A stretch of DNA of 64,000 nucleotides from Shigella phage Sf25, in the sequence record MF327009; one strand, given 5' to 3'. Shown piece after piece: positions 9,238-63,757 of the stretch; position 1 is the stretch's first letter; each line of letters starts with the position of its first letter. The position numbers and the translations under genes are program-made. The notes below the pieces were generated by a model. The model was not told the DNA's origin. It was given only the letters and a program-made list of their open reading frames with translations, and made no database searches.

Positions 9238-11006
9238 AAAAGCCACAAGAAATGCAAACGATGCGTAGAAAAGTTATTTCAGATAATAAACCAACACAGG
9301 AAGCGGCTAAATCCGCTTCCAACACTTTATCTGGACTTAACGATATATCTACGAAATTGGATGATGCTCAAGCTGCTTCTGAATTAATAGCTCAAACTGT
9401 CGAAGAAAAATCGAATGAAATAGTTGGAGCAATTGACAACGTAGAAAGCGCAGTGAGTGATACTACCGCAGGTTCTGAGTTAATTGCCGAAACTGTCGAA
9501 ATTGGCAACAATATTAATAAAGAAATCGGTGAATCACTCGGAAGTAAATTAGATAAATTAACAAGTTTACTAGAGCAAAAAATTCAGACAGCCGGAATTC
9601 AACAAACAGGAACTAGTTTAGCCACGGTTGAAAGCGCTATTCCTGTTAAAGTTGTTGAGGACGATACAGCTGAATCCGTTGGTCCTTTATTACCGGCTCC
9701 TGAAGCAGTTAATAATGATCCTGATGCTGATTTTTTCCCTACTCCTCAGCCAGTTGAACCTAAACAAGAATCGCCAGAAGAAAAACAGAAAAAAGACGCA
9801 TTTAATTTAAAATTATCTCAAGCTTTAGATAAATTAACAAAGACTGTTGATTTTGGATTTAAGAAATCCATTTCAATTACTGATAAAATATCAAGCATGT
9901 TATTTAAGTACACCATCAGTGCTGCTATTGAAGCTGCTAAAATGACTGCAATGATATTGGCTGTTGTTGTTGGAATAGACCTGTTGATGGTTCATTTTAA
10001 ATACTGGTCAGATAAATTTTCAAAAGCCTGGGATTTATTTAGTACTGATTTTACTAAATTCTCTAGCGAAACCGGAACATGGGGTCCTTTATTACAGAGC
10101 ATCTTTGATTCTATTGATAAAATTAAACAACTTTGGGAAGCGGGAGATTGGGGTGGATTGACAGCAGCTATCATAGAAGGACTCGGAAGTGTTCTTTTTA
10201 ATTTAGGAGAGCTTATTCAATTAGGTATGGCTAAATTATCTGCTGCAATTCTTCGAGTCATTCCTGGCATGAAAGACACTGCTGATGAAGTAGAAGGAAG
10301 AGCACTGGAAAATTTCCAAAATACTACTGGAGCATCTCTCAATAAAGAAGACCAGGAAAAAGTTGCAAATTATCAGTACAAAAGAATGAATGGAGACCTT
10401 GGCCCGATAGCAAAAGGATTAGATAAAATTGCTAATTGGAAAACTCGTGCATCTAATTGGATTCGTGGAGTTGATAATAAAGAAGCACTAACAACTGATG
10501 AAGAGAGAGCAGAGGAAGAAGAAAAATTAAAGCAGCTTTCTCCAGAGGAAGCTAAAATTGCTTTAATGAAAGCTAATGAAGCTCGTGCTGCTATGAATCG
10601 TTTTGAAAAATATGCCGATTCAGCTGATATGAGTAAAGACTCAACGGTTAAATCAGTTGAATCTGCCTATGAAGACCTTAAAAAACGGATGGATGACCCG
10701 GATTTAAATAATTCACCGGCGGTTAAAAAAGAACTTGCTGCTAGATTTTCTAAAATTGATGCTACTTATCAAGAGCTCAAGAAGAATCAGCCTAATGCCA
10801 AACCTGAAACTTCTGCTAAATCGCCAGAAGCAAAACAAGTCCAGGTAATAGAAAAGAACAAAGCACAGCAAGCTCCTGTTCAACAAGCATCTCCTTCAAT
10901 CAACAATACTAATAATGTTATTAAGAAAAATACTGTCGTTCATAATATGACACCTGTCACAAGCACAACTGCTCCTGGTGTATTTGATGCGACTGGGGTT
11001 AATTAA
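9234..11006 (+). CDS. 29: baseplate hub / tail-length determining protein gp29
   Basis: 590-aa ORF with ATGA overlap to gene 28; length and position as in T4. Confidence 0.85.
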   Translation: MKKPQEMQTMRRKVISDNKPTQEAAKSASNTLSGLNDISTKLDDAQAASELIAQTVEEKSNEIVGAIDNVESAVSDTTAGSELIAETVEIGNNINKEIGESLGSKLDKLTSLLEQKIQTAGIQQTGTSLATVESAIPVKVVEDDTAESVGPLLPAPEAVNNDPDADFFPTPQPVEPKQESPEEKQKKDAFNLKLSQALDKLTKTVDFGFKKSISITDKISSMLFKYTISAAIEAAKMTAMILAVVVGIDLLMVHFKYWSDKFSKAWDLFSTDFTKFSSETGTWGPLLQSIFDSIDKIKQLWEAGDWGGLTAAIIEGLGSVLFNLGELIQLGMAKLSAAILRVIPGMKDTADEVEGRALENFQNTTGASLNKEDQEKVANYQYKRMNGDLGPIAKGLDKIANWKTRASNWIRGVDNKEALTTDEERAEEEEKLKQLSPEEAKIALMKANEARAAMNRFEKYADSADMSKDSTVKSVESAYEDLKKRMDDPDLNNSPAVKKELAARFSKIDATYQELKKNQPNAKPETSAKSPEAKQVQVIEKNKAQQAPVQQASPSINNTNNVIKKNTVVHNMTPVTSTTAPGVFDATGVN

Positions 11007-11014
11007 GGAATAAT

Positions 11015-12109
11015 ATGGCAATTGTTAAAGAAATAACTGCTGATTTAATTAAAAAGTCCGGTGAGAAAATTTCAGCCGGACAGAGTACTAAATCAGAAGT
11101 AGGAACTAAAACATACACAGCCCAGTTTCCAACTGGGCGTGCTAGTGGTAATGACACTACAGGGGACTTCCAGGTAACAGATCTATATAAGAATGGATTA
11201 TTATTTACTGCATACAATATGTCATCTAGGGATTCTGGAAGTCTTAGATCGATGAGATCTAACTACTCTTCTTCATCTTCGAGTATTTTACGTACAGCCA
11301 GAAACACTATCAGTAATACAGTATCAAAACTGTCAAATGGATTAATATCAGATAATAATTCAGGAACAATAAGTAAAGCCCCTGTTGCAAATATTCTTTT
11401 ACCAAGATCTAAATCCGATGTTGATACATCATCACATAGATTTAATGATGTTCAAGAAAGTCTTATCAGCAGAGGAGGAGGTACTGCTACTGGTGTGCTA
11501 AGTAATATTGCTTCAACTGCAGTATTTGGGGCACTGGAAAGTATAACACAAGGTATAATGGCTGATAATAATGAACAGATTTATACGACAGCCAGAAGTA
11601 TGTATGGTGGTGCTGAAAATAGAACTAAAGTGTTTACTTGGGATTTGACTCCACGTTCAACAGAAGATTTAATGGCTATTATTAATATCTATCAATATTT
11701 TAACTATTTTTCTTATGGTGAAACTGGTAAATCTCAATATGCTGCTGAAATAAAGGGGTATTTAGATGATTGGTATCGTTCTACGTTAATTGAACCTTTA
11801 TCTCCGGAAGACGCAGCTAAAAATAAAACACTATTTGAGAAAATGACATCGAGTTTAACTAACGTTCTAGTGGTTTCAAACCCGACAATTTGGATGGTGA
11901 AAAACTTTGGTGCAACATCTAAGTTTGATGGAAAAACGGAAATATTCGGTCCATGTCAAATCCAGAGTATCAGATTTGATAAAACACCTAATGGTAACTT
12001 TAACGGATTAGCTATTGCTCCAAACCTCCCTAGTACATTTACTCTTGAGATTACTATGAGAGAAATTATCACGTTAAACCGTGCTTCTTTATATGCGGGG
12101 ACTTTTTAA
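11015..12109 (+). CDS. 48: baseplate-tail tube junction protein gp48
   Basis: 364-aa ORF, length and position as in T4. Confidence 0.85.
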   Translation: MAIVKEITADLIKKSGEKISAGQSTKSEVGTKTYTAQFPTGRASGNDTTGDFQVTDLYKNGLLFTAYNMSSRDSGSLRSMRSNYSSSSSSILRTARNTISNTVSKLSNGLISDNNSGTISKAPVANILLPRSKSDVDTSSHRFNDVQESLISRGGGTATGVLSNIASTAVFGALESITQGIMADNNEQIYTTARSMYGGAENRTKVFTWDLTPRSTEDLMAIINIYQYFNYFSYGETGKSQYAAEIKGYLDDWYRSTLIEPLSPEDAAKNKTLFEKMTSSLTNVLVVSNPTIWMVKNFGATSKFDGKTEIFGPCQIQSIRFDKTPNGNFNGLAIAPNLPSTFTLEITMREIITLNRASLYAGTF

Positions 12110-13400: not shown

Positions 13401-13454
13401 TCCTCATGTTATGTCAGTAAGATTACTATAACACAACACGAGGGACTTGTAAAC
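13401..13454 (-). promoter_or_regulatory. early-promoter cassette (-35 GTTTAC, -10 TATAGT, RBS); 54 bp identical to 29491-29544
   Basis: Minus-strand GTTTACaag(18 nt)TATAGT then GAGGA; exact copy upstream of alc. Confidence 0.5.
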
Positions 13455-22465: not shown

Positions 22466-22807
22466 TTATGCTTTCTGCTTACCAAAACGAGAAGCATCAT
22501 CTCGAAGAACCGCACGTGCTCGGCGCATGATCTTCTCAACAGTTTGATTGATACGAGAGTTCGACCCACGCTTGTAGCCAGCGCGTTTAGAATCACCAAC
22601 TTTCTTTTCAACTGCTTTCTTTGCTTTAGCTTGTTTTTTCTGCTTACCAAAACGAGAAGCATCATCTCGAAGAACCGCACGTGCTCGGCGCATGATCTTC
22701 TCAACAGTTTGATTGATACGAGAGTTCGACCCACGCTTGTAGCCAGCGCGTTTAGAATCACCAACTTTCTTTTCAACTGCTTTCTTTGCTTTAGCTTGTT
22801 TTGCCAT
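22466..22807 (-). CDS. small highly basic protein, expanded from about 58 to 113 aa by an in-frame 165-bp tandem duplication
   Basis: Translation MAKQAKAKKAVEKKVGDSKRAGYKRGSNSRINQTVEKIMRRARAVLRDDASRF with the 55-aa block repeated exactly. Confidence 0.55.
   Translation of the reverse strand: MAKQAKAKKAVEKKVGDSKRAGYKRGSNSRINQTVEKIMRRARAVLRDDASRFGKQKKQAKAKKAVEKKVGDSKRAGYKRGSNSRINQTVEKIMRRARAVLRDDASRFGKQKA
22472..22801. repeat. exact tandem duplication, 2 x 165 bp (22472-22636 and 22637-22801), in-frame
   Basis: Identical nucleotide units; boundary ambiguous by 1 bp. Confidence 0.9.
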
Positions 22808-25252: not shown

Positions 25253-25485
25253 AGTACGCCATACACCCTTTGTGCTTCAACTAATCCATCAAAATCCAGT
25301 TTAAGATGTGTTATTTGATCACCATCACCTGGATTCACAATTACTAATACTGAACGAGGAGTTTCGGTAATAACACGAACCGATGTTTCAGGAAATCGTT
25401 CAGAAACCTTATTTACCAATTCCTGAGCAAATAGTTTAACTTTTTCTTGGAATTCTTTAACAGTAATTGGTTTTTCACTTAGCAT
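25249..25485 (-). CDS. hypothetical protein (78 aa), cd.2-like
   Basis: ORF track. Confidence 0.45.
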   Translation of the reverse strand: MLSEKPITVKEFQEKVKLFAQELVNKVSERFPETSVRVITETPRSVLVIVNPGDGDQITHLKLDFDGLVEAQRVYGVL

Positions 25486-26006
25486 GTTGATCCCAGCTCC
25501 TTACTTTCAACGTTTTTAACTAATTTGACAGAAACTAATTCGGCATCTTGGGTAATCATTACCGGGCCTTCTTCATACTCTTCAAGATATTCTAGAGCTT
25601 TCTTTTTAGCTTCTTCCTTCGTATCAGTTTGAGCATAGATATAGAACATACAACCAGTAATACCTACTACTTTCCACTTAATTTCTTTATCAGTTTTAAT
25701 TTCAAATTTACTGATAGAGTCATCTTTTTGAACTTCTTCGAAAAAATAATATTCTGACATATAAGTAATTGAAAATAACGGGCTATCTTTATAAGATTCG
25801 CCCATTACATCAACAGCTTTATACCAGCAGTCATCAATTTCACGTTTAATGCTAATAACATTTTTCGCAGAATCTATTTTTACTTTAAATGAATTTTCCC
25901 CAATAAACTTGGCAATTCGTTTATTAGCCCCGCAAGTTTCATTAAAAATATCTTTATATCCAGCTTTAAAGCGATAAACCTTATCTTCTTCAAACCATTT
26001 GCTCAT
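25479..26006 (-). CDS. hypothetical protein (175 aa), cd.3-like
   Basis: ORF track. Confidence 0.45.
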   Translation of the reverse strand: MSKWFEEDKVYRFKAGYKDIFNETCGANKRIAKFIGENSFKVKIDSAKNVISIKREIDDCWYKAVDVMGESYKDSPLFSITYMSEYYFFEEVQKDDSISKFEIKTDKEIKWKVVGITGCMFYIYAQTDTKEEAKKKALEYLEEYEEGPVMITQDAELVSVKLVKNVESKELGSTC

Positions 26007-28196: not shown

Positions 28197-28639
28197 TTAT
28201 CCTCTTTTAACTCTTGACGATAATAACATATCATAGTTTTCTGATCATGTACATATCGTTTTACATCATTAAGCCAAATGCGAAATTCCTGGGAATCTTC
28301 AAATGGCATACCGACCCAAGCTTTACCATCAATAACTTTAACTTGCCAGGATAGTTTAGCTTCATCGTATGACTTTATTTGTACTGGCCAATTAGGATGA
28401 ACTGTTTCTTTCTTTACTTCTAGAGGCTTTGTCGAACAACCAACTAGAAGACCAATAGATAATATTACCCAAGCTTTACCATCAATAACTTTAACTTGCC
28501 AGGATAGTTTAGCTTCATCGTATGACTTTATTTGTACTGGCCAATTAGGATGAACTGTTTCTTTCTTTACTTCTAGAGGCTTTGTCGAACAACCAACTAG
28601 AAGACCAATAGATAATATTACTGCTGATAGTTTAATCAT
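28187..28639 (-). CDS. putative lipoprotein, expanded from about 99 to 150 aa by an in-frame 153-bp tandem duplication
   Basis: Signal/lipobox-like LSIGLLVGC-S; the 51-aa block ILSIGLLVGCSTKPLEVKK...DGKAWV is repeated exactly, giving two lipobox copies. Confidence 0.5.
   Translation of the reverse strand: MIKLSAVILSIGLLVGCSTKPLEVKKETVHPNWPVQIKSYDEAKLSWQVKVIDGKAWVILSIGLLVGCSTKPLEVKKETVHPNWPVQIKSYDEAKLSWQVKVIDGKAWVGMPFEDSQEFRIWLNDVKRYVHDQKTMICYYRQELKEDKCK
28314..28619. repeat. exact tandem duplication, 2 x 153 bp (28314-28466 and 28467-28619), in-frame
   Basis: Identical nucleotide units. Confidence 0.9.
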
Positions 28640-29490: not shown

Positions 29491-29544
29491 TCCTCATGTT
29501 ATGTCAGTAAGATTACTATAACACAACACGAGGGACTTGTAAAC
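29491..29544 (-). promoter_or_regulatory. early-promoter cassette upstream of alc; 54 bp identical to 13401-13454
   Basis: Same -35/-10/RBS cassette as at 13401-13454. Confidence 0.5.
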
Positions 29545-31162: not shown

Positions 31163-32332
31163 TTAAAAATATTTTTTAAAACTCATCATAACTTTATCAT
31201 CAACATCATTATCAATCTGTGCTACAAGGTAAGATGACAGTTCTACTTCTTGTGGCGCGGATTGAACATTATCAGAATTAAGATATTCACGAATCCAAGG
31301 ATACGGATGTTTAACCGGAGCATCAGTAATTGGGCATGGAAGACCGCACTGTTTCATACGAGATACAGTTAAGTAATCAATAAAGCTCCACATGCTATTT
31401 GTATTTAATCCAGGAACATCGCCATCTTTAAATAAATGAACTGCCCAGTCTTTTTCTTGACGGTTAACTTCCATGAAAATATCAACTGCTTCTTGTTCAC
31501 ACTCTTGGGCAATTTTAACCCATTCATCACCATCAGTGCCAAGTTGAAGTTGACGAATAATATATTGGGTGCCTTTAAGGTGAAGCTGCTCATCACGTGC
31601 AATGAACTTCATAATCTTGGCATTACCTTCCATGATTTCCATGTTTTTATGGAAGTTAAAGGTACATGCGAAAGATACATAAAAACGAATAGCTTCCAAT
31701 GCGTTGATTACATGCAAGCAGAGGTAAAGAGATTTCATTAGCGCTCGTTTAGTACATTCAACAACTTTGCCTAGCTCTTCTTTACGAAATCCTTCTGATA
31801 AAATTCCTTCATAATCTTCAACCGCATTCTGGTATTCACGAGTCTTAACTAGAACATCATCGTAATAGCGACCAATGGACTCGGCACGTTTCATAATAGC
31901 TTTATCTAATACAATCTCATCAAACACCTTTGACGGATCAGTATAAAGATTTCGCATGATATGAGTATATGAACGACTGTGAATAGTTTCACTAAAAGTC
32001 CATGTAGCAACCCATGTATCAAGGCTTGGATCTGAAATTAATGACATAAGTACAGCAGACGGTGCACGACCCTGAATGCTATCCAAAAGTGATTGATACT
32101 TCAGGTTATTAGTAAAAATATCTTGCTGATATTGAGGAAGCTTGTTAAATTGTGCAGCATCCATCATCAAGTTTACTTCTTCAGGACGCCAGAAAAATGA
32201 CAATTGCTTTTCGGTTAAATCTTCAAAAACTTTATGGCGTTGAATATCATAACGCGCAATACCAAGACCTGAACCGAAGAACATAGGTTCTTTTAAAACA
32301 TCAACTGGATTTGTATTAAAAACTGTGCTCAT
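31163..32332 (-). CDS. nrdB: ribonucleotide reductase small subunit, uninterrupted (no intron)
   Basis: Continuous 389-aa ORF MSTVFNTNPVDVLKEPMFF...; ferritin-like di-iron protein. Confidence 0.9.
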   Translation of the reverse strand: MSTVFNTNPVDVLKEPMFFGSGLGIARYDIQRHKVFEDLTEKQLSFFWRPEEVNLMMDAAQFNKLPQYQQDIFTNNLKYQSLLDSIQGRAPSAVLMSLISDPSLDTWVATWTFSETIHSRSYTHIMRNLYTDPSKVFDEIVLDKAIMKRAESIGRYYDDVLVKTREYQNAVEDYEGILSEGFRKEELGKVVECTKRALMKSLYLCLHVINALEAIRFYVSFACTFNFHKNMEIMEGNAKIMKFIARDEQLHLKGTQYIIRQLQLGTDGDEWVKIAQECEQEAVDIFMEVNRQEKDWAVHLFKDGDVPGLNTNSMWSFIDYLTVSRMKQCGLPCPITDAPVKHPYPWIREYLNSDNVQSAPQEVELSSYLVAQIDNDVDDKVMMSFKKYF

Positions 32333-32383: not shown

Positions 32384-34897
32384 TCATAATTTACAGGATG
32401 AACAATCTTCAGCTTTTGGAGTTTCTATTTCATAATCATCAGTACCAGAACCGTCACGGGTATTATGATAATAGAAATTTTTTCCGCCAAAATACCAAAA
32501 ATATAAAAGGTCATCAATCATTATTGACATTGGAACCTTTCCTTTTGGAAAAATCTGCGGGTCATAATATGTATTAGCTGAAGCTGATTGACATACCCAT
32601 TTCAGCATAATAGCTACTTGCGTAAGATAAGGTTTATTGCCTTTCTTAGCTAATTTCCACGTATAATCATAGAGGTCTATGTTATGCTCAATATTGGGCA
32701 CGACTTGATTAAAGGAACCCTCTTTTGATTCTTTAACAGAGACTGGTCCACGTGGAGGCTCGATACCGTTTGTACTGTTAGAAACTTGGGAAGATGACTC
32801 ACATGGCATAAGTGCTGATAATGTGCTATTACGGATGCCAAAGAGCTTAAGGTCTTCCCGCAGCGACGACCAGTCACAAACGTATTTTGGAGCTGCGATT
32901 TGGTCAATCTTTTTATTGTACCAGTCGATAGGTAATTCGCCTCGAGACCAACGAGTGTCTGAATAATATTCGCAAGGTCCTTTTTCTTTGGCGAGCTTAA
33001 TGGATGCTTTAATGAGTCCATACTGTAATCTCTCAAATAGTTCATGTGTTAAATCGTTAGCATCTTCATAAGAAGCAAAATTACTTGCCAGCCAAGCTGC
33101 ATAGTTAGTAACACCTACACCAAGATTTCGACGCTTTTTAGCTTTTTCTGCTTCAGGAACTGGATATCCTTGGTAATCCAAAAGATTATCAAGAGCACGA
33201 ACTTGGACTTCTGCCAATTCATTAATTTTATCTTGGTCTTGCCAATCAAAGTTATCTAACACAAATGCAGATAACGTACACAATCCAATTTCAGCATCAG
33301 GACTATTCACATCATTTGTTGGAATAGCAATTTCACAGCACAAGTTGCTCTGACGAATAGGTGCCTTTTCACGAATAAACGGAGTATAGTTATTCGTATT
33401 ATCTATGAACTGTACATAAATCCTTGCTGTTCCTGAGCGTTCAGTCATGAGCAATTCAAATAGTTCACGGGCTTTAATACGCTTTTTACGAATATTAGGG
33501 TCTTTTTCTGCTGCTTCGTATAATTCACGGAAACGGTCTTGGTCTTTAAAATAAGAATAATAAAGCTCGCCACCCATTTCATGCGGACTGAACAAAGTAA
33601 TGTAATCGTTCTTTCCGAATCGTTCCATCATCAAATCATTCAGCTGAACACCATAATCCATATGACGGATACGGTTTTCTTCTACACCTTTGTTATTTTT
33701 CAAAACGAGAAGATTTTCAACTTCCAAATGCCAAATAGGATAATAAGCAGTAGCAGCGCCGCCACGAATTCCACCCTGTGAGCATGATTTAACAGCAGTC
33801 TGAAAATGTTTCCAAAAAGGAATAACACCAGTATGGCGTACTTCACCTGTGCCAATCTTAGAACCTTCGGCACGAATCATACCAACGTTAATACCAATTC
33901 CATAATCCATATGACGGATACGGTTTTCTTCTACACCTTTGTTATTTTTCAAAACGAGAAGATTTTCAACTTCCAAATGCCAAATAGGATAATAAGCAGT
34001 AGCAGCGCCGCCACGAATTCCACCCTGTGAGCATGATTTAACAGCAGTCTGAAAATGTTTCCAAAAAGGAATAACACCAGTATGGCGTACTTCACCTGTG
34101 CCAATCTTAGAACCTTCGGCACGAATCATACCAACGTTAATACCAATTCCAGCGCGTTTGGAGATATATTCAACAATTGAAGCAGAAGCCTTATTGATAG
34201 ACTTTAATGAATCACCTGCTTCAATAACAACGCATGAACTAAACTGCCGAGTTGGAGTACGGCAACCAGCCATAATAGGAGTTGGCAGTGAAATCTGTCG
34301 AGTAGATACTGCTTCATAAAAACGGATAACGTGTTTTAATCTATCAACAGGTTCATCTTGATGCAATGCCATTCCAATAGTCATAAATGCAAACTGTGGA
34401 GTTTCATAAATTTGACCAGTGGTTTTATCTTTAACTAGATATTTTTCTTTTAATTGCATCGCCCCGGAATAAGTAAATTCCATATCCCGCTCGTGCTTAA
34501 TTTTTGATTCTAAAAATGTAATTTCTTCGGCAGAATATTTTGACAACAATTCAGGGTCATATTTACCTTCATTTACACAGTAAGAAATGTGGTCAATAAA
34601 TGAACGTGGTTCATACTGCCCATAAACATGCTTACGAAGAGCGAACATTAAACAGCGTGCAGCTACATATTGATAATCAGGCTCTTCAACTGAAATAGAA
34701 TTCGCAGCAGCCTTAATTACAATGGTTTGAATGTCATCAGTTGTCATTCCATCACGGAGATATGATTTAATATTTTCATATAATTCATAAGGATCTACAG
34801 ATGTTCCTTCAGCTGCCCAAGATAAAACTTTAATAATTTTTTGCGGGTCAAAGCTCTGAGAAACACCACTACTTTTGATAACATTAATTAATTGCAT
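32384..34897 (-). CDS. nrdA: ribonucleotide reductase large subunit carrying an in-frame 249-bp tandem duplication (837 aa versus 754 aa expected)
   Basis: MQLINVIKSSGVSQSFDPQKI...; 83-aa block GIGINVGMIRAEGSKIG...NRIRHMDY repeated exactly. Confidence 0.9.
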   Translation of the reverse strand: MQLINVIKSSGVSQSFDPQKIIKVLSWAAEGTSVDPYELYENIKSYLRDGMTTDDIQTIVIKAAANSISVEEPDYQYVAARCLMFALRKHVYGQYEPRSFIDHISYCVNEGKYDPELLSKYSAEEITFLESKIKHERDMEFTYSGAMQLKEKYLVKDKTTGQIYETPQFAFMTIGMALHQDEPVDRLKHVIRFYEAVSTRQISLPTPIMAGCRTPTRQFSSCVVIEAGDSLKSINKASASIVEYISKRAGIGINVGMIRAEGSKIGTGEVRHTGVIPFWKHFQTAVKSCSQGGIRGGAATAYYPIWHLEVENLLVLKNNKGVEENRIRHMDYGIGINVGMIRAEGSKIGTGEVRHTGVIPFWKHFQTAVKSCSQGGIRGGAATAYYPIWHLEVENLLVLKNNKGVEENRIRHMDYGVQLNDLMMERFGKNDYITLFSPHEMGGELYYSYFKDQDRFRELYEAAEKDPNIRKKRIKARELFELLMTERSGTARIYVQFIDNTNNYTPFIREKAPIRQSNLCCEIAIPTNDVNSPDAEIGLCTLSAFVLDNFDWQDQDKINELAEVQVRALDNLLDYQGYPVPEAEKAKKRRNLGVGVTNYAAWLASNFASYEDANDLTHELFERLQYGLIKASIKLAKEKGPCEYYSDTRWSRGELPIDWYNKKIDQIAAPKYVCDWSSLREDLKLFGIRNSTLSALMPCESSSQVSNSTNGIEPPRGPVSVKESKEGSFNQVVPNIEHNIDLYDYTWKLAKKGNKPYLTQVAIMLKWVCQSASANTYYDPQIFPKGKVPMSIMIDDLLYFWYFGGKNFYYHNTRDGSGTDDYEIETPKAEDCSSCKL
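33651..34148. repeat. exact tandem duplication, 2 x 249 bp (33651-33899 and 33900-34148), in-frame within nrdA
   Basis: Identical nucleotide units; boundary ambiguous by 3 bp. Confidence 0.9.
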
Positions 34898-34915
34898 AAG
34901 TCCTCAACTTGAAAA

Positions 34916-35271
34916 TCGTCTTTAAACAATCGGTTAACTATATGAGCTATTATATCACCATGACACGGCTTTGGTTTACATGTGCATCCTAGCCTCATTC
35001 CACGTAAAGGCTCTAAATGTGCTTTAGTTATTTCTCCGGATTTAATTCGACGTATAAAATCTTTTTTGAATAATTCAATGGCAGCCTCCCGGCTCGTCTT
35101 TAAACAATCGGTTAACTATATGAGCTATTATATCACCATGACACGGCTTTGGTTTACATGTGCATCCTAGCCTCATTCCACGTAAAGGCTCTAAATGTGC
35201 TTTAGTTATTTCTCCGGATTTAATTCGACGTATAAAATCTTTTTTGAATAATTCAATGGCAGCCTCCCGGC
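34916..35271. repeat. exact tandem duplication, 2 x 178 bp (34916-35093 and 35094-35271), just upstream of the nrdA start
   Basis: Identical units; unit length not a multiple of 3; replaces the 3' end of the upstream ORF. Confidence 0.9.
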
Positions 35272-35392
35272 TGCCAGCATCTTTACCGACGTAATTTCCC
35301 CAAAATGTACCACGGTGAATATTAACATCAAAGTCGGATTTATATTTATTCACTACCCGGCATAGACGGCCCGCGCGGTTGTAGGTGTTCAT
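35075..35392 (-). CDS. hypothetical protein (nrdA.1-like); C-terminus altered by the 178-bp duplication
   Basis: ORF track; without the second copy the frame would end ...NRLFKDDFQVEDLCN overlapping the nrdA ATG. Confidence 0.45.
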
Positions 35393-35609
35393 ATTGTTCT
35401 TCCGTTAAAACAGTAATATCGTAGTAACAGTCAGAAGAAGTTTTAACTGTGGAAATTTTATTATCAAAATACTCACGAGTCATTTTATGAGTATAGTATT
35501 TTTTACCATAAATGGTAATAGGCTGTTCTGGTCCTGGAACTTCTAACTCGCTTGGGTTAGGAAGTGTAAAAAGAACGGCACCAGAAGTATCTTTAAATCG
35601 TAAAATCAT
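35346..35609 (-). CDS. hypothetical protein (87 aa)
   Basis: ORF track. Confidence 0.4.
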
Positions 35610-36466
35610 ATTGCCATTTTCCCTTTAATTGCTGGATGCGATTCATAATTTTCAAGGATAAAATCTTTCGGTTTCATGTATTCAGTTAACCAGTAAAGCT
35701 GTGTTTCGGTGTCACAATTTCCAAACTCTATAGGCCAATCAATTTTAAGTTCACACAGTTCTTTAGGCTCACGACGTAAAATTTCTTTACATTGCTCAGT
35801 ATGATTCATATAGATGTGAGTATTACCACCAGAAAATATCAAATCTCCTGGGATAAGATTACACATCTTAGCCACAATATGCGTCAAGGCAGCGTACGAG
35901 GCAATGTTGAATGGCAAGCCCAAGAAAACATCTACACTTCTTTGGTACCATTGTAAATCAAGATAACCATTACGCACATTAAACTGATAGAACATATGAC
36001 AGGGCGGTAATGCCATTTGATTGATTTCAGCTGGATTCCATGCTGAAACGATTTGACGTCGATCAGTTGGTAATTTTTTAATACGATCAATAGTTTCAAC
36101 TAATTGATCCACACCACCGAAATCACGCCATTGTTTACCGTATATAGGACCAAGTTCACCACTATGATATCCTAGGTCTTTAGCTTGGTTTTCATAATTG
36201 TCATCCCAGATAGTTTTACCTTGAATAAGACTACCGTGAGTAAGAAGACGTAAATCATTAACATTGGTAGAACCGGAAATAAACCATAAAAGCTCAGCAA
36301 TGCATGCATTCCAGGCGAGCTTCTTAGTTGTTACTGCAGGAAAACCTTTGGTTAAATCCCATCGTAATTTAGTACCGAACAAAGCAATTGTTCCTGTGCC
36401 CGTTCGGTCATCGGTTTCATAGCCATTTTCAAAAATGTCTTTAATTAAATCTTGGTATTGTTTCAT
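35606..36466 (-). CDS. td: thymidylate synthase, uninterrupted (no intron)
   Basis: Continuous 286-aa [28 protein letters not shown] with catalytic PPCH; same length as spliced T4 Td. Confidence 0.9.
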
Positions 36467-38440: not shown

Positions 38441-38887
38441 CTACTTTTTGAAAGTTTTTCGCAAAAGTTCAATGATTTCATCTACATTGTTTTCGTCAAC
38501 AATGCAGTGAATTTTTGTTACGCCAGAAACCTTGTCTATGACTTCATCTACATTGTTTTCGTCAACAATGCAGTGAATTTTTGTTACGCCAGAAACCTTG
38601 TCTTTGACTTCATCTTCTTCAGAAGTCGGTTCTTTATACTCACGAAAACAATGAAATTCATCTTCGCAAATTTCTAAAAGTCTATCTTTGAGGTAAAAAT
38701 GCTTTCCATTTGCGCATTCAATGTGTTTTACTGCTTTATATCCATTAGCGACGGAAACTTCTTTAACTTCAAACCATCCGCCATTATCTCGAATAGCTTT
38801 AACGATTGATGAATTAGAACGTGGGCTATAATTAATAAATGTATCAATAAGTCTTGGAACAAGTTCATACTTTTTGCCAATATACAT
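38441..38887 (-). CDS. hypothetical protein (148 aa) with an internal 22-aa tandem repeat
   Basis: ORF track; ...VKDKVSGVTKIHCIVDENNVDE VIDKVSGVTKIHCIVDENNVDE.... Confidence 0.45.
   Translation of the reverse strand: MYIGKKYELVPRLIDTFINYSPRSNSSIVKAIRDNGGWFEVKEVSVANGYKAVKHIECANGKHFYLKDRLLEICEDEFHCFREYKEPTSEEDEVKDKVSGVTKIHCIVDENNVDEVIDKVSGVTKIHCIVDENNVDEIIELLRKTFKK
38472..38615. repeat. near-exact tandem repeat, 66-bp unit, about 2.2 copies, 2 mismatches
   Basis: Position i matches i+66 across 38472-38549 except at 38476 and 38538. Confidence 0.8.
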
Positions 38888-39158: not shown

Positions 39159-39200
39159 ATTATTTTCCTCTTTAATCATCAGCAGTATTGCCGATAGTTG

Positions 39201-39230
39201 TATAGTACCATGGAAGGACAAGGATGTAAA
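39201..39230 (-). promoter_or_regulatory. early promoter (-35 GTTTAC, -10 TACTAT) with AT-rich upstream element
   Basis: Minus-strand GGTTTACatccttgtccttccatggTACTAT; cassette recurs at 55870-55899 and 59253-59282. Confidence 0.5.
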
Positions 39231-39244
39231 CCGTTTTGTGAAAA

Positions 39245-39281
39245 AAATTTTTGAAATAAAAAGGGGACCTCTAGGGTCCCC
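39245..39281 (-). terminator. rho-independent terminator after gene 32 (GGGGACC-CTAGA-GGTCCCC plus U-run)
   Basis: Strong stem-loop followed on the minus strand by ttttatttcaaaaattttttt. Confidence 0.65.
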
Positions 39282-39303
39282 AATTAATTAGTAATATAAT
39301 CTA

Positions 39304-40212: not shown

Positions 40213-40310
40213 TTTTATTTCCTTTTTAATTTAATTAACAGTTGGTGCTATGACGATGTATGACCTCATAGCTGGTCAGTGAGATAATTATAATCTATTT
40301 ATAATAAGCA
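40213..40310 (-). promoter_or_regulatory. gene 32 5' leader: AU-rich translational operator (UUAAAUUAAAAAGGAAAUAAAA-AUG) and a TATAAATA late-promoter match at 40296-40303
   Basis: Sequence read directly; gp32 autoregulation through such an operator is established for T4. Confidence 0.5.
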
Positions 40311-40311
40311 A

Positions 40312-55828: not shown

Positions 55829-55869
55829 TTTCTAATCTCCGTAATTCTGTATCAGTAGTTGATAGTTGT

Positions 55870-55899
55870 ATAGTACCACAGTATGCTTTGGTTGTAAAC
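55870..55899 (-). promoter_or_regulatory. early promoter for motA (-35 GTTTAC, -10 TACTAT)
   Basis: Minus-strand GGTTTACaaccaaagcatactgtggTACTAT with AT-rich upstream element; motA is an immediate-early gene in T4. Confidence 0.55.
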
Positions 55900-55930
55900 C
55901 GTTTTGTGAAAAAATTTTTGAAATAAAAAA

Positions 55931-55950
55931 GGGAGAGCCGAGGCTCTCCC
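55931..55950 (-). terminator. rho-independent terminator (GGGAGAGCC-GA-GGCTCTCCC plus U-run)
   Basis: Strong stem-loop; minus-strand T-run follows. Confidence 0.65.
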
Positions 55951-55955
55951 TAAAA

Positions 55956-56105
55956 TTACTGCTCAAACACGATAACTATCATGATAACACGTTGAATTCC
56001 GAACGCAAGAAGACCTCCTGCTACGGCTGGAACAACACCTAAACCAGCCAGTAAAATGCTACCGGATACTAATGCAGCGCTTGTAATACCTATGAATGGA
56101 CTCAT
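55956..56105 (-). CDS. small hydrophobic membrane protein (49 aa)
   Basis: Manual translation MSPFIGITSAALVSGSILLAGLGVVPAVAGGLLAFGIQRVIMIVIVFEQ; overlaps the gene 52 stop. Confidence 0.4.
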   Translation of the reverse strand: MSPFIGITSAALVSGSILLAGLGVVPAVAGGLLAFGIQRVIMIVIVFEQ

Positions 56106-58718: not shown

Positions 58719-58961
58719 TTTCTGTTCCTCCGTAGTTGATAGGGTAATAATACCACAGAGGAACAGTCTTGTAAACAACTTTTTTAAAAATATTCGTAAT
58801 AAATGTGAATACCAACTACTACTGCTGAAACTTGCACAACCCACCACGCACAAGCAATAAGCACAGAATTCAAAATTTTCATAATAACCTCATCACAAAA
58901 GTAAATGTTAAACAAATTAATGGAATACTAATTAACCAAACGAAACACCACCATAATGAAC

Positions 58962-59225: not shown

Positions 59226-59252
59226 TTTCCGCTCCTCCGTAGTTGATAGTTA

Positions 59253-59282
59253 TATAGTACCACGGTCCTTGTGGTATGTAAA
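59253..59282 (-). promoter_or_regulatory. early promoter (-35 GTTTAC, -10 TACTAT)
   Basis: Same cassette as at 39201-39230 and 55870-55899. Confidence 0.5.
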
Positions 59283-59299
59283 CCGTTTTGTGAAAATTT

Positions 59300-59857
59300 T
59301 TAAATGGAAAGATACCATCCGTTGTAGTTGCTTTTTCTTACAACCTTACGAAGGTCTTCTCTATCACCGATGAACTTCGGAGTGTACTGGATGACACCTG
59401 GGTGAATTTCTTTAGTGTTGAATATAATTATACAGTCAGCGACCTGATGATTCAGAATGGGCCCTAGATTTATTCCAGAACCATATGGATACTCTCCGCT
59501 GCATCCTGTTGTTACAGAAATCCAACGTGAGTCAGTTTGATGTGTCTTAACTTCTACACGAAGCCCGCAGTATCTTGGATGCGCCAATACATCCCATGCG
59601 TATGTATACGGGTCATTAACATCCTCTTGGCCTTTGTTAACATATCCGCTTAGCCAATCTGCTACAAAAAACTCTGCGTACACCGCGATACGACATCTTT
59701 CAATAACTTCTGCTTTATCCTGATTTGGATTTTGTTTTAAAGAGTATCTTGCTGTATCAGCAATTTTGACCTTCATTTCACTAGTCAAGTCATTGTTCGA
59801 TAGGGTAAATGTCGGAATCTGAAATAGTCTCTGTAAACCCGGATTCGTTTTCTGCAT
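59300..59857 (-). CDS. denB: endonuclease IV
   Basis: 185-aa ORF MQKTNPGLQRLFQIPTFTLSNNDL; length as T4 EndoIV. Confidence 0.8.
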   Translation of the reverse strand: MQKTNPGLQRLFQIPTFTLSNNDLTSEMKVKIADTARYSLKQNPNQDKAEVIERCRIAVYAEFFVADWLSGYVNKGQEDVNDPYTYAWDVLAHPRYCGLRVEVKTHQTDSRWISVTTGCSGEYPYGSGINLGPILNHQVADCIIIFNTKEIHPGVIQYTPKFIGDREDLRKVVRKSNYNGWYLSI

Positions 59858-61330: not shown

Positions 61331-63757
61331 TTAGGCCGCAAGGGCCTTCATAGTTTTAGCGATTTGAGAAACTTCATCATCACTTAAAGAGTTGCGATAA
61401 CCGATGAAGTCGGAAACAATACGGAATTTCTTGGTAAACTCAGCAACCATTTTATCACTGTTTTTTGAAGCATTATTTGATAATACATCAAAAAGATTAG
61501 TTACTGTCCAGATGTCATGACCGATGGTACCTTTTCCACCGTTGAAATATACGCCCCGCAATGAACTAACTATATTAGCGAGTCGTGTATATTCTTCAGA
61601 AACTTCATCTGTACTGAAGTACTTCATCATAAAATCTAGTTCAGGATACTTGATAATTTTATCAATATATCGTTGAGCTGAACTTGAATAACCTACGTAC
61701 TTATCATAATCTACATCATCAAAAGCATCTACATATAAATCACGCAGAGTTTCAAAAATACATTGGCACTGACCGAGTTCTTTTACCTTTTTCTGCAAAA
61801 GCGGACGAATAACATAAAATTCATTAATGCCAATAAGATTAGCCATACGAATCAAAATATTCATAGATGGATGACAAAGAGATGTAGTACCATCCATAGA
61901 GAAAATATCAGAACGATGCATATACGCTACATAACCAGTAATTTCATCTGCTTCTGATGTGAGCGTAAACAGTTCCTCTTTTTCCCATCGCCCATCTTTA
62001 ATTTCAAACTTAAATGCTGTAGCAGCTTTAGGACGAGGAGCTTTACTTTTAACTACCTTTGGAATATAGCTTTTAACTAAAGCTTCAATTTCTGACAAAT
62101 AATGAATGTTAACTTCATCACTTTCAAACATCGCCATAATATCAGGAAGTAAATCAATCTGCGATTCTACTTCTGGATTAATAAACAGAAGACGCTCATT
62201 GTGATGAATATTCAAAGTGTTATTAAATTCACTATCATCTAACGCATGTGCTAATCCACGAACAATATTAACACGATTTTTAATATTATCAATAACGATA
62301 TTAATTTTTGTTGTATTAATACCAAACAGACGATAACTTGATGCAACGGCTGAAGTTTCATGACTTTGCTTAATGCGTTTCAGTCGAGGGTCAAGATTTA
62401 CTTCATACACAACTCCTGCATTGCATAACTTACTGTCAGGTTCAAACATGCTCTGCATCTTTTTATATGACAGATTTTTAGTCGTGAATTTGACTGAATT
62501 ACTAATCATATAATCTCGAGCAGAATATCCCATCTTCATCAATTCACGATATGTGTGACGAGGAGATGTAGATTCTTTAAATCGTTTTACATCTTCATTG
62601 AATGCCTTCTCACTAAGCTCTTTAACACGCTCAATAATATTTTTACGAGTACGATCATCTAGTGAAAGAGCTTCGCGTGATGGAGCAATATCAAGTGAAC
62701 CCATTGGAAACTTAATGTAATTCACTTCATTGCGAATGCTTAGCCAGTTACGGTCTCTAATAACACCATCGATAGGATAAACAATACCGCCATAGATAGC
62801 ATATAATCCACCACGATCAGGCCAGTATCTTTCTGGATTTACACCATAATAATCATCAAAATCAGGAAAATAATCAATTTCAATAATATTTTTACGAGTA
62901 CGATCATCTAGTGAAAGAGCTTCGCGTGATGGAGCAATATCAAGTGAACCCATTGGAAACTTAATGTAATTCACTTCATTGCGAATGCTTAGCCAGTTAC
63001 GGTCTCTAATAACACCATCGATAGGATAAACAATACCGCCATAGATAGCATATAATCCACCACGATCAGGCCAGTATCTTTCTGGATTTACACCATAATA
63101 ATCATCAAAATCAGGAAAATAATCAATTTCGCGGTCAAGACCATTAATGATAGCCAAATCTTTGAACGGTCGCATGATATAAGAAACTTCATAAGCAAAG
63201 TTTCTAAAGTCTTTTTCTTCAACTGGAACTACGATTTCAATACCAGTTTTATCATCTGGACCCATTTCTTTTACGAATGTAGGTTTAATCTGTGGGCCAT
63301 CACCATCCATGTAAGCTACATAACCACGAATTTCACCTTTATGATACGAAGTAATACTAAACGTATCAGTATAACTAAACGGAGATTTAGAACCTAAACC
63401 AAATCCGCCAATAAAGTCATTAGATTCAGCCTTAGATGAACTGAAGTATGAATTATACAGCCCAGGAGAATTATCATCACCCTGAATATCAAAATCACTC
63501 ATACCCGGACCAAAATCTCGACAAACAAATCGTGGATCTAATCGTCCTGGAACTTGAATGATAAATTTTTCAGGATTTCCATTAAGTGCATGAGCATCAA
63601 TCATGTTAGTAATCAATTCACGGACTACTGCGCGAATCTTGTTTGTATACAAATCAGATGACAGAATTTTAAATACTTTAGGATTTGCTGCGATGCTAAA
63701 TGCTTTTGATTTAGAACCATTGCCAAGAATTGTTTCTTTTTCAGTGGTGATAATCAT
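61331..63757 (-). CDS. rIIA: rIIA protein carrying an in-frame 249-bp tandem duplication (808 aa versus 725 aa expected)
   Basis: [20 protein letters not shown]...; 83-aa block [24 protein letters not shown]...TRKNIIE repeated exactly. Confidence 0.9.
62631..63128. repeat. exact tandem duplication, 2 x 249 bp (62631-62879 and 62880-63128), in-frame within rIIA
   Basis: Identical nucleotide units. Confidence 0.9.

Follow-up and report, generated by a model that had tools for sequence, protein, structure and literature searches.

The window, i.e., the entire 64-kb stretch of DNA that was analysed, is a segment of a Tequatrovirus (T4-like) genome that runs from rnlB/hoc to rIIA. The genes around the feature considered here all lie on the minus strand, in the order td, nrdA.2, nrdA.1, nrdA. 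They comprise td (35606–36466), which encodes an intact thymidylate synthase of 286 aa and is intron-less, nrdA.2 (35346–35609), which encodes a DUF5496 protein and is likewise intact, nrdA.1, and nrdA (32384–34897), which encodes the large subunit of ribonucleotide reductase. Introns are absent from both td and nrdB (31163–32332) in the window phage. A tandem repeat lies at the boundary of nrdA.1 and nrdA: positions 34916–35093 and 35094–35271 are 100% identical over 178 bp, as reported by Tandem Repeats Finder (period 178, 2.0 copies) and by a repeat finder, in agreement with an earlier note on this DNA that had described the two units as identical. The repeat begins 19 nt upstream of the nrdA ATG and spans the 3′ two-thirds of nrdA.1. 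Copy 1 (34916–35093) is proximal to nrdA and holds the native 3′ end of nrdA.1, copy 2 (35094–35271) matches it at every base, and the novel junction, at which GGCAGCCTCCCGGC abuts TCGTCTTTAAAC, falls between positions 35093 and 35094. The periodic region covers 34916–35272, i.e., 2 × 178 + 1 bp, which leaves 1 bp of microhomology at the boundary of the repeat. An exact tandem copy of this length cannot have originated by chance.

The unit had also been described as not being a multiple of 3, which is correct (178 = 3 × 59 + 1), and two open reading frames result from the repeat. The chimeric nrdA.1 ORF (35075–35392, minus strand; 105 aa) has its last 13 residues, which form the tail ending in DDFQVEDLCN, exchanged for EPGGCH past the junction, with tblastn showing two frames. 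It nonetheless keeps the DUF4326 domain whole (PF14216; E = 4.6e-22, 78.9 bits for a gathering cutoff of 25, profile positions 1–81 of 82). The partial second copy of nrdA.1 is a 36-aa ORF (34888–34998, minus strand) that carries the native C-terminus ending in NRLFKDDFQVEDLCN, covers positions 65–81 of the DUF4326 profile and overlaps the start of nrdA (ATG at 34897) by 10 nt. The earlier note had predicted both configurations. According to it, a single copy would let nrdA.1 end in DDFQVEDLCN over the nrdA ATG, which is true of all relatives, where nrdA.1 is 108 aa long and overlaps nrdA by 10 nt; two copies would give a C-terminus of KDEPGGCH with a partial second copy in front of nrdA, and this was recovered in the ORFs, in tblastn and in Pfam. 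The nrdA product itself is 837 aa long instead of the 754 aa found in relatives because a second, in-frame duplication of 249 bp (33651–34148) lies within the gene.

The state of the locus in relatives was established with a query of 1001 bases spanning the 178-bp repeat, to which 511 phage records matched, 489 of them covering at least 80% of its length. Among the 40 matches listed, 39 span 823 of the 1001 query bases (1001 minus 178), which corresponds to one copy; the exception is Escherichia phage vB_Eco_TB37. Each of 14 independently obtained relatives, drawn from GenBank, Logan, ENA, a JGI metagenome contig and IMG/VR, has exactly one unit with the same flanks. Five relatives found through a look-up of the td protein are all single copy, as is OIWM01000017.1, a relative at 95–97%, which was the sole yield when a 44-mer specific to the window was searched in IMG/VR, GTDB genomes and JGI metagenomes. 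Neither exact look-ups of gp34 and Alt nor searches of E. coli genomes and plasmids recovered the sequence of the window. Alignment of the td–nrdA interval with relatives, which the earlier note had proposed as a check, showed the expected single-copy end of nrdA.1 and its 10-nt overlap with nrdA, and the junction of the window occurred in none of them. Furthermore, 50-mers across the six duplication junctions of the window gave no match among 50,697 phage records, neither the 178-bp junction nor the 249-bp junction in nrdA was found in IMG/VR, and exact look-ups of the chimeric nrdA.1 and of the 837-aa nrdA were negative in a collection of 153 billion gene positions.

The entire 64-kb window, when scanned, yielded six exact two-copy tandem duplications of 153–249 bp. 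In a chained alignment of the window with the syntenic stretches (about 65 kb each) of Shigella phage Sf24 and Escherichia phage TadeuszReichstein, to which PinkRuby was added for the tail-fibre genes, all six duplications proved private to the window. Besides the 178-bp duplication that starts at 34916 in nrdA.1, they are a 202-bp duplication (923–1326) that takes in the 5′ half of gp24.3 and the hoc terminator region, a 165-bp duplication (22472–22802) in frame within gp30.9, a 153-bp duplication (28314–28621) in frame within the o-spanin gene, whose product becomes 150 aa long against 99, the 249-bp duplication in frame within nrdA (listed at 33651–34151 in the scan), and another of 249 bp (62631–63130) in frame within rIIA, whose product is 808 aa long against 725. 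The partial copies of gp24.3 and nrdA.1 are out of frame, whereas nrdA, rIIA, o-spanin and gp30.9 carry internal repeats in frame. Exact tandem duplications of at least 40 bp number zero in the syntenic 65 kb of TadeuszReichstein and one in that of Sf24, and TB37 has one of at least 30 bp in 50 kb. The repeat of Sf24 (MF327008.1, gp121/gp122, at about 10832–11361 of the compared stretch) is an exact 265-bp tandem duplication beside denB that is annotated as two paralogous genes and is not present in the window; the repeat of TB37, which is 79 bp long, creates an annotated ORF of 30 aa.

In addition to the duplications, the window contains nine clean deletions of 70–173 bp that are private to it relative to Sf24, TadeuszReichstein and PinkRuby. 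The resulting damage was assessed by tblastn of Sf24 proteins. A 133-bp deletion (junction 2394/2395) removes residues 1–21 and the start of hoc together with the last 19 residues of inh, which retains residues 1–207 of 226, and a 72-bp deletion (23431/23432) costs gp31 its stop and its final 10 residues. A 173-bp deletion (40809/40810) takes away the C-terminus of gp33 and residues 1–52 of gp59, and gp33 is joined in frame to residues 53–217 of gp59 in a fusion ORF. Deletions of 173 bp (50146/50147) and 70 bp (50606/50607) both lie within gp37 and cause frameshifts, the gene being left in three pieces in two frames. A 103-bp deletion (51997/51998) shifts the frame within gp38, and a 72-bp deletion (52469/52470) takes the stop of gp38, the sequence between the two genes, and the start and first nine codons of holin t. 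Finally, a 134-bp deletion (57630/57631) eliminates residues 1–32 of ac with its upstream region, and a 130-bp deletion (58624/58625) truncates ndd.2a and ndd.4.

The remaining parts of the truncated genes are mostly 97–100% identical to Sf24. In T4, genes 31, 33, 37, 38 and t are required for plaque formation. Since these genes are truncated or frameshifted here, the sequence as written is non-viable; with lesions in gp31, in gp33/gp59, twice in gp37, in gp38 and in t, and with no other decay, it cannot represent a viable, replicating phage. Taken alone, the 178-bp event would be compatible with a viable genome, as the DUF4326 domain and nrdA are left intact by it; the same cannot be said of the sequence in which it sits.

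Between the breaks the sequence is of high quality. It is 97–99.7% identical to relatives with few small indels, and stretches of 9,337 bp and 5,161 bp align to Sf24 at 99.7% and 99.2% identity, respectively, with zero gaps; thus, the breaks are not read noise. No inversions were found in the window when they were looked for against relatives. The 15 breakpoints have 0–3 bp of microhomology, on average 0.87 bp. Random events of 70–250 bp simulated on Sf24 yielded 0.76 bp (P = 0.37 for the summed values); for the six duplications alone, the comparison with random gave P = 0.07. Clustering of the breakpoints did not differ from random either, as judged by the smallest span of four events (P = 0.15) and by the CV of the spacing (P = 0.12). 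A search of the junctions for pieces from different strains showed shifts in identity at 2394, 50146, 50606 and 52469, all of them within hoc, gp37 and gp38, genes that are hypervariable by nature; the duplication junctions showed none. The sizes of the events pile up at the extremes of their range, with 249 and 249 bp among the duplications and, among the deletions, 173 and 173 bp at the top and 70, 72 and 72 bp at the bottom; events of 30–69 bp were not seen in the window, and the pile-up is explained by none of the models tested.

Several other repeats and differences in gene content were considered separately from these breaks. An exact dispersed repeat of 54 bp (13401–13454 and 29491–29544), which on the minus strand resembles a T4 early promoter (GTTTAC ... 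TATAGT) and lies upstream of alt.-3 and alc, was rejected as an artefact: relatives carry a promoter-like cassette at both sites, with one to three mismatches at the alc site and with an exact match in Sf24 at the alt.-3 site, and the cassette is thus natural. A 66-bp repeat (38469–38615), present in 2.2 copies within a 148-aa frd.2-like ORF (phrog_622), was rejected as a member of the series, since its copies are in frame, match at 97% instead of 100% and belong to another size class; Sf24 and TadeuszReichstein have one copy fewer, and the repeat looks like a natural length polymorphism. A family of intergenic repeats of 66–98 nt with 65–80% identity (39184–39290, 55852–55958, 58729–58794 and 59236–59301) combines promoter-like hexamers with adjacent GC-rich hairpins, and its members probably represent the promoter/stem-loop cassettes known from T4-type phages. 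In comparison with Sf24 and TadeuszReichstein, the window also has a 518-bp insertion (25485–26003) encoding a 175-aa ORF, which has no Pfam match, matches phrog_3710 (unknown function) and appears to be a natural accessory gene. The homing-endonuclease gene segG is present in Sf24 and TadeuszReichstein and is absent from the window between 32 and 59 (40275–40311).

The 15 private breaks form a set marked by exactness, random-like breakpoints, damage to genes and absence from all relatives. Judged from these comparisons of sequence, the 178-bp duplication is most probably an artefact of sequence construction and one of the 15 clean private breaks, a reading to which we assign a probability of roughly 0.88. 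The repeat bears the features by which such an artefact is recognised, in that its copies are base-identical, it is private, it is accompanied by faults of the same kind and the sequence that results is implausible. The gene consequences described in the earlier note are exact, whereas its implication that the phage genome itself carries a genuine duplication is not sustained, given that 14 other private breaks of the same size class destroy essential genes and that the junction is present in no relative or public collection; the note's own caution about read support was well placed.

For the origin of the breaks, we infer a specific mechanism of concatenation in which the size of the events would be capped by the read length. 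A fragmented assembly of a T4-like phage may have been ordered, probably along a reference, and its pieces placed one directly after another. An overlap of 153–249 bases between neighbours, up to approximately one read length, would then have been written twice and would appear as an exact tandem duplication, and where stretches of 70–173 bases were uncovered, they would have been dropped and would appear as clean deletions. The two duplications of exactly 249 bp would fit overlaps of one shared, trimmed 250-nt read. However, a de Bruijn assembler yields overlaps of fixed k, and the events fit the joining of ends poorly in that the overlaps vary from 153 to 249 bases with no fixed k, no event is smaller than 70 bp and the sizes lie at the extremes of their range; the precise mechanism of the artefact is therefore uncertain. 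An equivalent post hoc corruption of an otherwise good sequence would have the same appearance.

A biological origin must be weighed against construction of the sequence. It is improbable, in our estimation, that the repeat is a genuine and very recent tandem duplication that arose by replication slippage or illegitimate recombination and was tolerated as near neutral, with the deletions being separate artefacts. Such an event would be nearly neutral at this locus, since the domain of the chimeric nrdA.1 is intact and only its 13-residue tail is altered, while copy 1 preserves the native end of nrdA.1 and, with 178 bp of native upstream sequence, the context of the nrdA start. Moreover, the duplicated genes 24.3, 30.9, o-spanin, nrdA, nrdA.1 and rIIA are all dispensable in T4, so that all six duplications fall where selection would permit them, a point against the artefact; if essential sequence makes up some 45% of the window, as a rough estimate suggests, such placement by coincidence has a probability of about 3%. 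Lone exact tandem duplications are known from the records of TB37 and Sf24 and do occur, therefore, in deposited T4-like genomes, which also speaks against an artefact. Nevertheless, six exact events in 64 kb compare with zero or one in relatives, and nine deletions that inactivate essential genes match the 178-bp repeat both in size class and in how clean they are. The very active recombination of T4 should, moreover, rapidly collapse direct repeats of 178 bp unless they are selected, and the junction is found in no other public sequence examined (IMG/VR, the 50,697 phage records and the 14 relatives). T4 does duplicate by recombination at short homologies (PMC9391042), but the single base pair of microhomology at the 178-bp repeat falls short of the 2–10 bp that serves as the criterion there. 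A real duplication would be recent and close to neutral.

The exception among the relatives suggests a further possibility, namely, that short tandem duplications arise preferentially at the nrdA.1/nrdA boundary of Tequatroviruses, a natural hot spot at which slippage or the repair of breaks at the nrdA start, for instance, would have produced the repeats of the window and of TB37 independently. The record of TB37 (OZ035850.1, about 139579–139737) indeed shows an exact 79-bp tandem duplication over the start of nrdA and the end of nrdA.1, which overlaps the 178-bp unit of the window by 18 bp and has no counterpart elsewhere in the 50 kb of TB37 that were scanned. However, the two events have no end point in common, TB37 is the only one of the 50,697 phage records to contain its junction, which was not found in IMG/VR either, and the locus is otherwise covered to at least 80% of the query by 489 of 511 records and single copy in 39 of the 40 matches listed. 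With hundreds of related records, a neighbouring event by chance is not very unlikely, and the event of the window is fully explained by the genome-wide pattern of breaks; we therefore regard a hot spot as very unlikely. Similarly slight is the chance that the duplications of the window are genuine, with the nrdA.1/nrdA boundary as a recurrent site in Tequatroviruses that was hit independently in the window and TB37, or that the sequence faithfully depicts defective T4-like genomes, a population dependent on complementation whose many short duplications and deletions were made by homology-independent joining.

Construction of the sequence remains the preferred reading, under which the 178-bp repeat would be without biological meaning and its value would lie in quality control. 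Gene calling, work on protein families and comparative studies should not draw on the 64-kb stretch until it has been corrected. The alterations affect at least 19 genes, including 24.3, hoc, inh, 30.9, 31, o-spanin, nrdA, nrdA.1, 33, 59, 37, 38, t, ac, ndd.2a, ndd.4 and rIIA. Other findings in the window probably share this cause where they depend on a tandem repeat, a frameshift, a fused ORF or a truncated gene.

Among known systems, the gene context of the repeat corresponds to the nrdA operon of T4, with nrdA.1 (DUF4326, PF14216) and nrdA.2 (DUF5496), in that the order td, nrdA.2, nrdA.1, nrdA is shared with the window. The stop-start overlap of nrdA.1 and nrdA in relatives is that of the window once one copy is removed, and the duplicated 178 bp are the sole difference. 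The TB37 repeat is analogous to the 178-bp repeat in its gene boundary and as an exact two-copy tandem, but it differs in end points and size, damages neither nrdA.1 (108 aa) nor nrdA and stands alone in its stretch of genome. Segmental gene amplification of the "accordion" type, which involves a whole gene with its promoter and usually more than two copies, was considered and rejected, as the unit here is 178 bp of the 3′ part of a gene, is present in two copies and is not a multiple of 3.

Genuine amplifications and deletions of T4 form at homologies of 2–10 bp (Srikant et al. 2022, eLife, PMC9391042). In that case, the deletions measured 0.7–6 kb, a selected gene was amplified in multiple copies on the scale of kilobases and all 62 essential genes were spared, the list of essential genes being that of Miller et al. 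2003. The window resembles this system in the co-occurrence of tandem repeats and deletions in a T4-type genome. In contrast, its events span 70–249 bp with homology of 0–3 bp at the random level, reach two copies only and damage essential genes. Misassembly through unmerged overlaps and dropped gaps differs from the window in having overlaps of fixed k, whereas those of the window vary from 153 to 249 bp with none of the events below 70 bp. The two nevertheless have in common exact copies, sizes of at most one short-read length and a lack of breakpoint homology, together with many events per sequence, absence from all relatives and a disregard for gene boundaries and essentiality.
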